The notes: generated from the letters alone by a model not told the origin. A stretch of 15,127 nucleotides of DNA from Halobacteriaceae archaeon (GCA_042216675.1 JBDGTS010000038.1:1-15127); one strand, 5' to 3'; shown: positions 1,111-4,762, numbered from the stretch's first letter. Numbers and translations: made by a program.

Positions 1111-2253
1111 TCACTCGTAGGCCTCGCGCAGTTCCGCGTCCACGTCCCAGATGGCGCTCCCCTCGCCCCGGAGTAACTTCACGCTCGCCCGCAGGAGCGA
1201 CACCTGCGTGTCGAACAGGGCGTACCCGGCCTGAAGCGGGCCCAGCACCTCCCGGGAGCCGGCGGCGACGAACAGGCCGACGGCGACGGGGACCGCAAGC
1301 CCCGCCAGCCCAGCGACCGACACGCCCGCGGCCGTCGCGACGACGATGGTCAGCGCCAACAGCCACGGCGAGACGACCATGAACCACCAGTTGAAGGGCA
1401 ACACGAGTCGCCCGTAGTTGCCGTAGCCGCCGAGTGCGTCCCGGTGCTGAACGAGGAGGCGAATCAGCCCCATCGCGCGCCGGTCTTTCTGCTTGCGGCG
1501 CTTCCGGAACGCCGAGTGAGCGGCCTCCTTGTACCGGATGGCGGGGTCGAACAGCACGCGCTTCCCGCCGCGGCGAATCTTCAGGGCGAGTTCCGTGTCG
1601 TCGGCGATGGAGTCCGGGTCGATGGGCCGAATCTCGTCGTTCTCGAACGCCGAGAACGGGCCGTGGAAGATGAGCGTCGAGTCGAGGTGCGACTCCAACT
1701 GCTGGACGTACCCCTGCACGCCGCGGTAGCCCGCCTCCACGTCGCTCCCGCCCAGTACCTCCGCGTTGCGGCCCGTCACGGCCGCCACGTCGGGGTCGGC
1801 GAGGTTCGCGACGGCCTCTCTGAGGGCGCCGTCCGCGACCACGGAGTCACAGTCCGTCTTGACCACGACTTCGTTCTCGGCGGCGGCGTAGGCGTCGTTG
1901 AGCGCTGGCGCGAGGCCGCGGCGCTCGTCCTCCTCCAACAGCGTCAGACCGGGCGCGTCGCGCCCGTCGAAGAAGTCGCGGATGATGTCGCGGGTGTCGT
2001 CGTCGCTGGAGTCCACGACGACGACTTCCATCTTGTCGAGGGGGTAGTCGAGTTCACACAGGCCGTCGAGTTTCTGCTCCACGATGCGCTCCTCGTTGTA
2101 CGTCGGGAGGACGACGCTCACCGTCGGCTCTCGGGCCGCCTTCTCGGCCGGCGACCCCGACGGGCGCACCCACGCGTAGAGGGCCAGATACGCCACGTAC
2201 GGGGCGGCCGCGACGGTCAGCAACACGGCCGTCGCGACAACGAGGGGATTCAT
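1111..2253 (-). CDS. Membrane-bound family 2 glycosyltransferase (cellulose-synthase-like motif layout)
   Basis: VVLPTYNEE, VVVVDSSDD, DxD (TDCD), ADD and QKDRR motifs. One N-terminal and two to three C-terminal hydrophobic helices. Confidence 0.9.
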   Translation of the reverse strand: MNPLVVATAVLLTVAAAPYVAYLALYAWVRPSGSPAEKAAREPTVSVVLPTYNEERIVEQKLDGLCELDYPLDKMEVVVVDSSDDDTRDIIRDFFDGRDAPGLTLLEEDERRGLAPALNDAYAAAENEVVVKTDCDSVVADGALREAVANLADPDVAAVTGRNAEVLGGSDVEAGYRGVQGYVQQLESHLDSTLIFHGPFSAFENDEIRPIDPDSIADDTELALKIRRGGKRVLFDPAIRYKEAAHSAFRKRRKQKDRRAMGLIRLLVQHRDALGGYGNYGRLVLPFNWWFMVVSPWLLALTIVVATAAGVSVAGLAGLAVPVAVGLFVAAGSREVLGPLQAGYALFDTQVSLLRASVKLLRGEGSAIWDVDAELREAYE

Positions 2254-2350: not shown

Positions 2351-3259
2351 ATGGCCGACGATGGCGACGTCTGCGTGCTCATTCCGACCCTGAACGAGGA
2401 GGAGACTATCGGTTCCGTCGTCGACGGCTTTCGCGACCGGGGGCTGGAGAACGTGTTCGTCATCGACGGGCGGTCGACCGACGACACCCGCGCGGTGGCC
2501 CGCGACCACGGCGCCCGCGTCACCGTCCAGTCCGGGGCCGGCAAGGGCCAAGCGGTCCGCGAAGCCATCGACGACGTCGACGCCGAGTTCGTCCTCCTCG
2601 TGGACGGCGACGGCACCTACGACCCCGCCGACGCCGATGCGATGCTCGAACCGCTCCGGGAGGGGCGGGCCGAACACGTCATCGGCAACCGCTTCGCCGA
2701 CATGGCGCCCGACGCGATGTCGCGGCTCAACCGCTTCGGGAACCGCGTCATCGACCGCCTGTTCGCGGCGCTGTACGGCACGCCCACGATGGACATCCTC
2801 AGCGGCTACCGGGCGTTCACGCTCGACTCCATTCGGCGCCTCTCGCTCACCGCCGAGGGCTTCGGCATCGAGACGGAGATGGCCGCCGAGTGCGCCCGCC
2901 TCGGCGTCGCCACCGAAGTCGTTCCCATCAGTTACAGCGCCCGGCCCGACGGGTCCGCGACGAACCTCCGACCGTTCCGCGACGGGGGGCGCATCCTGCT
3001 CACGATGTTTCTGCGGACGAAGACGAGCAATCCGCTCGTCTACTTCGGCCTCGCCGGCGGCGCGTCGATGACTGTCGGGTCCCTCATCGCGGCCTACGTC
3101 GGCGTCGAGTGGGTGACCCGACAGGTCAGCCACGAGGTGATGGCCGTCGTCGCCGCCTTCGCCATCATCGTCGGCGTCCAACTGTTCATGTTCGGCGCGC
3201 TCTCGGACCTCATCGTCACGCTCCACCGCGAGCAACTGGACCGCATCGAGGACGACTGA
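2351..3259 (+). CDS. aglJ: S-layer glycoprotein N-glycosyltransferase AglJ (dolichol-phosphate hexosyltransferase, GT2)
   Basis: VCVLIPTLNEE, IDGRSTD, QSGAGKGQAV, LVDGDGTY, HVIGNRFADM, DILSGYRAF, GFGIETEM and NLRPFRDG motifs, two C-terminal TM helices, 302 aa. Matches recalled haloarchaeal AglJ. Confidence 0.85.
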   Translation: MADDGDVCVLIPTLNEEETIGSVVDGFRDRGLENVFVIDGRSTDDTRAVARDHGARVTVQSGAGKGQAVREAIDDVDAEFVLLVDGDGTYDPADADAMLEPLREGRAEHVIGNRFADMAPDAMSRLNRFGNRVIDRLFAALYGTPTMDILSGYRAFTLDSIRRLSLTAEGFGIETEMAAECARLGVATEVVPISYSARPDGSATNLRPFRDGGRILLTMFLRTKTSNPLVYFGLAGGASMTVGSLIAAYVGVEWVTRQVSHEVMAVVAAFAIIVGVQLFMFGALSDLIVTLHREQLDRIEDD

Positions 3260-3310
3260 GCCGAATTCCCCCGCCGGAACTGCCGGCCTGTCGCGTCCGC
3301 CCGGACTCGG

Positions 3311-3562
3311 CTACTCGGAGCGCTCTCTCTGTTCGATGATGTCGTTCGCCACGTCCGACACGTGCTGTCGATGAGCGGCGGTCGTCTGGACGGATTGCGC
3401 GGCGTCGAGTTGGTCGTTCACGACCGCGTTCTGCTGTGGTCCCCACACTTCGGGGGGCTCGGATTCGATGTATTCCACCCAGCGCTTGATGGCTTCGACG
3501 CGTCGCTCGCGGTTCTGCTCGTGTTTCGCGTTCAGGTCCTCACGCACGTTTGAGTCGGTCAT
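3311..3562 (-). CDS. Small helical hypothetical protein (83 aa), putative partner/antitoxin of the upstream nucleotidyltransferase-like gene
   Basis: ATG at 3562 gives MTDSNVREDL...AIKRWVEYIESEPPEVWGPQQNAVVNDQL... and overlaps the upstream ORF by 23 nt. The longer 3694 start lies inside the upstream gene and is unlikely. Confidence 0.7.
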   Translation of the reverse strand: MTDSNVREDLNAKHEQNRERRVEAIKRWVEYIESEPPEVWGPQQNAVVNDQLDAAQSVQTTAAHRQHVSDVANDIIEQRERSE

Positions 3563-3992
3563 ACTCGTTTTCGACGCCGAGGCGCGTTGCCCACTCGTTG
3601 AGACGCGAACCACTAAGGTCTTCCTCGAAGAGCGTGTAGAGGTGGACAGCGTCCTCCACGTCTTTCTGTGCGCCGAGTGAGAGTTTGTAGGCAATCTGGA
3701 GCTCCAAGGGGCCGATCGGAATCCGCTCGTCGCCGATTGCGGCCGTCATCGCATTGTCGATCGATGCCCGGTCGAACTCGTCGCGGACGAATTTCACCTC
3801 CAGATGGGGTGTGATTTGGTCCTCCGGAGCGACCCAGATGTTGTCGCCGTGGTCCAACAGCTCGTACATCGAGGAGAGCGGCATCGCCGGCCCCCAGAAC
3901 CCTTCTTCTTCGAGGGCAGTCGCGAGTTCGTCGAGGCGATTGGGCTCGCGTTCGACGACGAGGACGTCGTCTCGGAGCTCGATGCCGCTCAT
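3540..3992 (-). pseudogene. Archaeal nucleotidyltransferase-like protein (AbiEii/pol-beta superfamily), apparently internally deleted but still in frame
   Basis: C-terminal LEVKF...IGPLELQIAYKL.LGAQKDVEDAVHLY matches a recalled archaeal NTase family. The expected G-x-V-x-I-L-x-G-R-x-R-x-T-E-D-x-D segment is absent (NRLDELA joins directly to TALEEEGFW). The frame is open for 150 aa. Confidence 0.6.
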
Positions 3993-4015
3993 ACAGATAC
4001 ATCATCCGTGGCGCG

Positions 4016-4021
4016 AATAAA
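4016..4021 (-). promoter_or_regulatory. TATA box for the nucleotidyltransferase-like cassette
   Basis: TTTATT on the minus strand, about 25-30 nt upstream of the ATG at 3992. Confidence 0.5.
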
Positions 4022-4102
4022 TCGTCGGGTGCCGCTCGAACCCATGGGGACCGCTACTCACGATTCCGGCGATTGCGGGTATCGTAGCCGTGAGTCCCCG
4101 AA

Positions 4103-4762
4103 TTACAGCAACGCCCGGAGCGCACCCAGCATCGCCCGCGGGAAATTCCGGCGCGCGCCATCGAGCGCCGATTCGAGCGTCGCCGTCGCGTCCGCCATGA
4201 CGCCCTCGCCGTGTCCGACGAGGATGCGCTCGGGCGCCAGCGACCGGAGGCCGCGCGGGGGCGACAGGCGGAGGAACGGATGCACGCCGAGCGTCTCGGT
4301 CGCGGCGACGAAGTGGCCCGCCGTGCCCATCGCGTCGCCGACGACGAGCGTCTCGCCGTCGAACAGCGCCACCTCCCGCCAGCCCGGCACCGACACCGTC
4401 TCCACGAGGCGGTAGTCGGTGTCACCCACCGTCGAGTGGACGTACTCGACGGGCGCGTCCGGCGCGTAGGGCACCGAGGTGGGCACGTGTACAGCCACGT
4501 CGTGCCGGTTCGCGAGCGTCGCGGCGTCGCGGCCGTGCCGGTCCACCGTCACGACGACGCCCGCCACCTCGCCGTACTCGGCCAGTAGTTCGTCGAGACC
4601 GGGGGCGTCGAGCGGGTCGAGCAGCCACACCCCCTCGTCGGTGGCGAGGGCGTGGCTCGCCCGCCGCATCGTCTCCTCTGGGTGGGCGACCCAGCCCACG
4701 CCGCCGTCCCAGCGGTCGATGACTTCAAACTCCGTCGGGGTCCCGGACGCCTTGAACGGCAT
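4103..4762 (-). CDS. Conserved haloarchaeal hypothetical protein with a degenerate metallo-beta-lactamase-like fold (219 aa)
   Basis: Real start is ATG 4762 (MPFKASG...). Motifs WLLDPLD, VTVDRHGRD, VVGDA and ILVGHG. The upstream part of the 532-aa ORF is an antisense shadow of melA. Confidence 0.75.
   Translation of the reverse strand: MPFKASGTPTEFEVIDRWDGGVGWVAHPEETMRRASHALATDEGVWLLDPLDAPGLDELLAEYGEVAGVVVTVDRHGRDAATLANRHDVAVHVPTSVPYAPDAPVEYVHSTVGDTDYRLVETVSVPGWREVALFDGETLVVGDAMGTAGHFVAATETLGVHPFLRLSPPRGLRSLAPERILVGHGEGVMADATATLESALDGARRNFPRAMLGALRALL

Follow-up and report, generated by a model that had tools for sequence, protein, structure and literature searches.

Work on MenT-type nucleotidyltransferase toxins has so far dealt with bacteria. 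MenAT1, of the DUF1814/AbiEii superfamily, consists of the toxin MenT1 (Rv0078A) and the antitoxin MenA1 (Rv0078B), and AbiE (AbiEi–AbiEii), MenAT3 and MenAT4 each combine a DUF1814 toxin with a COG5340 antitoxin. The type VII systems HEPN-MNT (HepT-MntA) are likewise two-gene modules with a small pol-beta-type nucleotidyltransferase. Here we describe a locus in a 15,127-nucleotide (nt) stretch of DNA from a Halobacteriaceae archaeon (GCA_042216675.1 JBDGTS010000038.1:1-15127, the whole of which is called the window below) that points to a compact archaeal relative of the MenT toxins. It is made up of two minus-strand open reading frames (ORFs) of 150 and 83 amino acids (aa) that overlap by 23 nt and lie between convergent genes, an arrangement that an earlier note on this DNA had read as a candidate toxin–antitoxin or defence module and whose coordinates agree with ours. 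The locus is a remnant and of little interest alone: its large ORF derives from a MenT1-like nucleotidyltransferase gene that has lost 50 codons in frame, and stands beside an intact gene for a DUF8150 (PF26477) protein. The interest lies in the family behind it, MenT1-like, with the putative toxin encoded first and followed by an uncharacterised partner family; intact members of this family are probably toxin–antitoxin pairs. In the library searched, nothing in print was found on the nucleotidyltransferase–DUF8150 family.

A family of MenT1-like nucleotidyltransferases

None of Pfam, NCBIfam, PADLOC and PHROGs contains a match for the large protein of the window. When 5.8 billion proteins were searched, 707 homologues came up; of the 119 matches listed in addition to the window protein itself, 112 have a length of exactly 200 aa and all measure 197–232 aa. 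An exhaustive HMMER search gave 572 clusters at 50% identity with E-values up to 1e-3, and 229 with E-values up to 1e-10; together with the positive profile matches in 84 of the 401 genomes of the phylum (Halobacteriota), these clusters outline a compact archaeal MenT1-like family that curated models have missed. When 75 diverse members were compared with Pfam, the matches were weak and divided between DUF2204 (23 members), DUF6036 (13), AbiEii (10) and the aminoglycoside 2''-adenylyltransferase family (4). DUF2204 and DUF6036 are both named 'nucleotidyltransferase of unknown function', and neither is matched by the window protein or by the first member of the family; the only literature match for DUF2204 was one paper which, judging from its available part, is on an unrelated subject.

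Conservation within the alignment of these 75 members is concentrated in two regions. In the first, G43, G50 and R51 are found in 74 members each, R53 in all 75, a Ser or Thr at position 55 in all 75 (Thr in 60, Ser in 15), and D57 and D59 in 73 each. The second comprises the C-terminal YKL..G..KD.EDA motif, which had been pointed out from the window alone and proves to be nearly invariant in the family (K153 in 73 members, K160 in 70, D161 in 74 and D164 in 75, followed by A165); between the two regions, E115 is kept in 73. Profile alignment superposes the R-x-T-E-D-V-D of the family on the R-F-T-R-D-V-D of MenT1, a stretch that is numbered R37-F38-T39-R40-D41 in the available part of PMC11375011, T39 being the auto-phosphorylation site and D41 a catalytic residue. 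The conserved K153, K160, D161 and D164 are the candidate counterparts of the catalytic Lys and the late Asp of MenT1 (K137, D152).

Predicted models of full-length homologues show a pol-beta nucleotidyltransferase core together with a helical domain at the C terminus, and they superpose on a MenT toxin of solved structure. The closest fold is that of MenT1 itself, aligned end to end over 174 residues and about 3.5 Z units above antibiotic nucleotidyltransferases. Unlike MenT1, the family enzyme has an extra N-terminal beta-hairpin (residues 1–17) and archaeal hosts, and its copy in the window is without the catalytic loop. The identification of the large protein as a nucleotidyltransferase, made in the earlier note, thus stands at the level of the family, where the pol-beta fold is closest to MenT1, and falls at this particular locus, where the catalytic loop is deleted and the module is a remnant.

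Deletion of the catalytic loop in the window copy

Aligned with its relatives, the window protein shows one clean gap, at alignment columns 23–72 (50 residues), and is 76–82% identical outside it. The missing columns hold G43, G50, R51, R53, [ST]55, D57 and D59, that is, the catalytic loop G..R.R.[ST]EDVD, which in the form G..R.R.[ST]xDxD is kept in 73–75 of the 75 family members. In terms of the modelled fold, helix 1, two core strands and the catalytic loop have been taken out; the C-terminal K153, K160, D161 and D164 are still present. Because the 50 lost residues carry the catalytic loop, the protein should be unable to act as a nucleotidyltransferase, and we regard it as close to certain, from the alignment, that the enzyme copy in the window is catalytically dead. 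This internal deletion had gone unmentioned in the earlier note.

In 12 full-length relatives, a word resembling GAC GA(G/A) CT(G/C) GC occurs both at codons 21–24 and at codons 71–74, 150 nt apart, and the window keeps a single copy of it (GACGAACTCGC, at 3932–3922). The situation fits a 150-nt in-frame loss through slippage or illegitimate recombination between short direct repeats, which would have taken place in an ancestor that is not itself available. Contigs assembled separately from two public runs of one study, X1 and X2 (2221 and 2228 nt, depth 9.6 and 23.2, respectively; the runs are possibly the source samples of the window), span positions 3208–4150 with 0 differences and 0 gaps, so that the deletion cannot be put down to an error in a single assembly.

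A second contig in X2 (232 nt, depth 32.8) matches window positions 3921–3962 with 5 differences. Since it diverges exactly at the deletion junction (window 3919–3962 region), a related organism in the X1/X2 samples probably carries a full-length gene. A natural 'short-form' subfamily was also considered, on account of 13 loci in which the tblastn segment covered query residues 9–150 or 11–148 only; it was ruled out, the frames being ordinary genes of ~200 aa with the catalytic loop, one of them broken by a run of N.

The DUF8150 partner

The 83-aa partner has 342 homologues, and the precomputed PF26477 label, named DUF8150 in the atlas, is attached to the window protein and to all 120 among the matches listed, with feature scores of 0.92–0.95. 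The protein has no match in NCBIfam, PADLOC or PHROGs, nor in the Pfam copy that we searched, which is without the PF26477 model, and the literature search returned no mention of PF26477 or DUF8150. Across 40 diverse partners, R21, W28, W40, G41, N45, Q51 and A55 are invariant and are followed by a variable acidic tail; all the invariant residues are present in the window, whose partner differs at one of 35 highly conserved columns. The predicted model has three helices (residues 3–34, 37–59 and 62–82; pLDDT 84.5, pTM 0.47) and no meaningful structural match was found for it by Foldseek or by further fold comparison, the best hit of a PDB profile search being a coiled region of yeast Sth1 (E 0.007) that we judged compositional. 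No invariant His and no Rx4-6H motif occur in the 40 partners. The absence of recognisable HEPN, PIN or AbiEi features, remarked upon earlier for the window protein, is confirmed, none having been found, and no known fold either. In contrast to AbiE, where the partner is a COG5340/AbiEi protein of ~200 aa, the partner here is an all-helical protein of 83 aa, with no Pfam, PADLOC or Foldseek match; in contrast to HEPN-MNT, it is without a HEPN motif.

Linkage of enzyme and partner

Directly downstream of the enzyme gene, and for the most part overlapping it as in the window, stands the partner gene: this was so at 12 of 12 loci in one set and at 77 of 80 in another, drawn from named genomes, where the three exceptions are a locus cut off by a contig end and a 3'-truncated gene present in two copies. 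In other families of the phylum, methanogen-type members included (locus GC 0.41–0.63), all 14 loci inspected by eye have an overlapping small ORF with a W..P.E.WS.QQ core, and in a divergent plasmid copy the partner ORF is there, unannotated. The tblastn match to the partner begins, for most of the 77 linked loci, 19 nt ahead of the final residue of the enzyme match; the arrangement in the window is identical, and the 23-nt ORF overlap suggests translational coupling. Co-occurrence of the two genes across archaea, which the earlier note had proposed as a check, is thus borne out by all three sets of loci. As to a third conserved gene of the module, the candidate was rejected, the commonest real flanking gene or cluster reaching only 15 of 81 loci.

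Another check proposed was modelling of the complex. The interface score ipSAE, taken as the median of three runs with a full-length enzyme and its own partner, was 0.84, whereas the best of three controls reached 0.00; at least 80% of the contacts recur between runs, and the pLDDT of the partner is at least 66. In the calibration, 116 of 157 solved complexes attained the mark, as did 2 of 215 mismatched pairs. The model supports, rather than shows, binding between enzyme and partner. Its predicted interface brings the conserved residues 18–56 of the partner, the invariant ones among them, against residues 1–4, 14–20, 47, 50–54, 56, 109–112 and 159–171 of the enzyme, and with residues 47, 50–54 and 56 among them the catalytic loop would be covered. 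Mapped approximately onto MenT1, enzyme residues 18–20 and 50–56 fall on its N-terminal helix and its T39 loop, both of which MenA1 contacts according to the available part of PMC10435456.

Some loci deviate from the usual arrangement. In Halorubrum tibetense and H. alkaliphilum (L089:3158-3625 and L090:6001-6468), the enzyme gene is cut after residue 156 and continues into identical unrelated sequence, without a partner, which looks like one shared disruption event, possibly by an inserted element. Halobacterium bonnevillei has a second DUF8150-like match (L017:10193-10456, 61% identity) 3.6 kb downstream of an intact pair. Two bins labelled 'Candidatus Nealsonbacteria bacterium' (L083) and 'Methanobacteriota archaeon' (L064) hold a pair of the haloarchaeal type, 62% and 61% identical to a Halobacterium protein, respectively; mis-binning is one possible cause.

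Spread and mobility

The enzyme is found in 38 of 151 sampled Halobacteria genomes, representing 21 of 58 genera with a patchy occurrence inside genera, and in 14 plasmid records. At the chromosomal site occupied in the window, the tblastn match ends of AglJ and of a conserved 206-aa protein are 7–53 nt apart in 15 of 19 loci of other same-family genomes, as compared with 849 nt in the window, and in one such genome the pair and the gene for the 206-aa protein are separated by 160 kb. Because the flanks abut in relatives and the pair is located elsewhere in a same-family genome, the ~843 nt between the two flanking genes are an insertion of the cassette alone. The composition is atypical: GC is 0.60–0.62 over positions 3301–4050 as against 0.69–0.74 on both sides, in agreement with an earlier hand count, and gene GC lies below locus or flank GC. 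No convincing terminal repeats flank the insertion.

The spread of the cassette is patchy and mobile, as seen from the plasmids, the differing chromosomal sites and the atypical composition, and the best explanation is a self-contained, horizontally mobile two-gene unit scattered through Halobacteria and methanogen-type Halobacteriota. The enzyme was not found in phage records, and viral contigs gave 46 pattern matches and 0 relatives. PADLOC returned weak rows only for the 75 members (PDC-M21B for 9 of 75, best E 1.3e-4; AbiEii models for 1–3 members each). The link to defence that had been suggested for the locus thus found no support, PADLOC giving only such weak matches and phages and viral contigs none.

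One-sided decay

When partner and enzyme profiles were compared in the one sample of 151 genomes, the partner was found in 58 and the enzyme in 38. Next to each of the 30 enzyme matches that are full-length and free of stops there is a partner match, and 37 of the 38 enzyme-positive genomes are also partner-positive, the exception holding an enzyme fragment only. Among the 21 partner-only genomes, 20 were examined, the omitted one having a weak match. These 20 contain 22 copies of the partner, none with a match to the enzyme profile within about 1.5 kb; 17 of these orphan ORFs are open and 5 broken, and at least nine copies retain, as seen by eye, the last 15–25 codons of the enzyme gene just upstream. 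In six more loci, a C- or N-terminal enzyme fragment stands beside a full partner match, and it is in this class that the window falls. An intact enzyme without partner was not seen in the 80 loci or in the 151-genome sample. The comparative pattern is that the antitoxin-like component persists alone and the enzyme does not, and the window provides a natural example of module death in which the active site of the enzyme goes first and the partner is left behind.

Two orphan DUF8150 genes (L134:5360-6862 and L147:111-1431) lie beside other apparent toxin–antitoxin pairs recognised by eye, RelE/ParE-like with a ribbon-helix-helix protein in one and an MNT with a HEPN protein in the other. Such neighbourhoods would suggest toxin–antitoxin islands.

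Proposed function and alternative explanations

A toxin-like fold, an obligate small partner predicted to sit on the active site, mobility, low GC and the loss of the enzyme first together lead us to consider that the intact cassette is probably a MenAT-like toxin–antitoxin pair in which the enzyme is the toxin and DUF8150 the antitoxin, and that the window holds a decayed copy; toxicity and antitoxicity are what we infer from these features. The enzyme, by means of its G..R.R.[ST]EDVD loop, E115, K153 and D164, would add nucleotides to the 3' end of an RNA, the substrate probably being tRNA acceptor ends as for MenT1. The helical partner, DUF8150, would silence the enzyme by binding on top of its active-site loop, and it may possibly also promote phosphorylation at the invariant Ser/Thr, the counterpart of MenT1 T39 in the alignment. 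Both the tRNA 3'-end target and a control by phosphorylation of Ser/Thr55 are drawn by analogy with MenT1 and are less certain. In the window, the 150-nt in-frame deletion between short direct repeats has removed the catalytic loop, leaving a dead enzyme and an intact partner. A more far-reaching version would see in the family an archaeal branch of MenAT with a new antitoxin fold, a toxin-first gene order and an antitoxin acting on the Ser/Thr loop, whose remnants persist as anti-addiction orphan antitoxins against incoming plasmid copies; taken as a whole, this is rather unlikely. Should the toxin–antitoxin role be true, it would give a function to DUF8150, add a new antitoxin fold and gene order to the MenAT theme, and offer a small inducible growth-arrest module for genetically tractable haloarchaea.

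Several observations weigh against the toxin–antitoxin assignment. The sequence link to known toxin families is weak: the full-length first member of the family has no match in Pfam, NCBIfam or PADLOC, AbiEii (PF08843) is matched by ten of the 75 members, with a best E-value of 2.7e-4, and by neither the window protein nor the first member, and the PDB profile E-values for the enzyme are only 0.016–0.018. The fold is also common to the antibiotic nucleotidyltransferases LnuA and ANT(2'')-Ia, at lower Z (11.0–11.4). Compared with MenAT1, the cassette has the enzyme gene first, with the 23-nt overlap, which is the reverse of the menA1-menT1 order given in the available part of PMC10435456, and DUF8150 (three helices, ~85 aa) is unlike MenA1 in sequence and fold. 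Open frames of orphan partners are weak evidence of selection over ~85 codons because stop codons are rare in G+C-rich DNA, and three orphan copies of one genus appear to be decaying, one with two changes at conserved positions (by eye) and one frameshifted. As for the window copy, the X1 and X2 contigs that show the same deletion may stem from the window's own samples, and the remnant enzyme has changed at 2 of the 73 columns that are at least 95% conserved among 117 relatives, 26% of full-length relatives showing as many. With no excess of changes at conserved columns, either the deletion is recent or the remnant is still constrained, and it could remain under constraint instead of being merely recently deleted. 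Finally, the literature search found no experiment on any family member.

It could also be that no conflict system is involved, and that the two proteins form a two-subunit enzyme that modifies either a cellular RNA or, like LnuA and ANT(2'')-Ia, a small molecule, with DUF8150 as its specificity or regulatory subunit. The fold held in common with these enzymes speaks for it; however, MenT1 scores well above them with an alignment running from end to end, the Ser/Thr at the MenT phosphosite is invariant, and the predicted position of the partner on the active-site loop suggests occlusion rather than help. The patchy, plasmid-borne and non-syntenic spread and the decay of the nucleotidyltransferase first would also suit an addiction module better than a metabolic role, and we consider a two-subunit enzyme unlikely.

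A reversal of roles, with the nucleotidyltransferase as an antitoxin that chemically modifies a toxic small partner, would bring the cassette closer to HEPN-MNT. In HepT-MntA systems the enzyme gene lies upstream, as it does here. According to the available parts of PMC7641770 and PMC11586414, small nucleotidyltransferases do serve as antitoxins in these systems. However, the partner is without a conserved His or Rx4-6H motif and without a Pfam match, and if it were a toxin, its presence alone in 20 genomes, mostly with an open frame, and beside a deleted enzyme in the window would be lethal. MNT antitoxins are ~100–140 aa in size, whereas the enzyme fold described here is closest to the toxin MenT1 over its 174 aligned residues. 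The decay pattern suggests that the enzyme, and not the partner, is the harmful component, and a reversal of roles is very unlikely.

Another idea is that the deleted allele has been retained as a catalytically dead scaffold still binding DUF8150. Its frame is open, its changes at highly conserved columns are no more numerous than in full-length relatives, and about half of the predicted interface survives (residues 1–4, 14–20, 109–112 and 159–171). Correct folding would however be doubtful with so much of the modelled core gone (helix 1 and two strands besides the catalytic loop), no second instance of the deletion was seen among the 119 homologues listed or the 80 loci, and the absence of extra changes would be equally explained by a recent deletion, so that a retained scaffold appears highly improbable. 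That the 150-aa ORF is an assembly artefact in an organism that truly has a 200-aa gene is the least credible proposal, since, in spite of an assembly in 58 contigs with an estimated completeness of 80% and of a deletion that sits between short repeats, the concordant X1 and X2 contigs (from the same study and not independent samples) show it too, and the repeat of only ~11 nt is below usual assembly word sizes, which are longer.

Locus layout and neighbouring genes

Table 1. Features of the window in the region of the cassette, with coordinates counted from its first nucleotide
Feature	Coordinates	Strand	Basis
Second GT2 glycosyltransferase	1111-2253	-	PF00535, 73 bits
aglJ, left flank of the gene pair	2351..3259	+	TIGR04182, 431 bits
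Inserted cassette, ~843 nt, aglJ stop to stop of the 206-aa gene	3260..4102	-	tblastn spacing and GC
Small ORF, 83 aa, intact DUF8150 (PF26477) partner gene	3311..3562	-	ATG 3562..3560, stop at 3311
Overlap of the two ORFs, 23 nt	3540..3562	-	ORF coordinates
Large ORF, 150 aa, remnant of a MenT1-like nucleotidyltransferase gene with 50 codons deleted in frame	3540..3992	-	ORF listing
Deletion junction GACGAACTCGC, codons 21-24	3922..3932	-	Single repeat copy kept, two in relatives
BRE/TATA-like element CCCGACG-ATTTAT	4017..4029	-	-30..-25 from ATG; conserved upstream of homologues
Conserved 206-aa gene, right flank	4103..4723	-	No Pfam or NCBIfam family

The promoter of the cassette appears to be its own. 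In 74 upstream regions of homologues aligned on the start codon, positions −30 to −25 are 76–97% A/T, which bears out the TATA box noticed earlier in the window, and most of these regions carry the sequence CCCGAC(G/A)ATTTAT, of which the window copy runs from 4029 to 4017. We take CCCGACG-ATTTAT to be a B recognition element (BRE) and TATA box on general knowledge of haloarchaeal promoters, and its position 25–30 nt before the ATG implies a leaderless or near-leaderless mRNA. A search of Rfam gave no match, the best being a miRNA family (E 0.67) that was dismissed, and no RNA data set was listed as containing the stretch.

The two flanking genes, aglJ and that of the 206-aa protein, are convergent on each other with the gene pair between them. 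The remaining genes of the window are ordinary chromosomal ones, including, besides the second GT2 glycosyltransferase, a family-4 glycosidase, an aminotransferase, a Y-family polymerase and a GTP cyclohydrolase III. The 206-aa protein was found in 37 of the 41 same-family genomes, usually encoded convergently with aglJ, and aglJ and the adjoining GT2 glycosyltransferase gene form part of an N-glycosylation gene neighbourhood.
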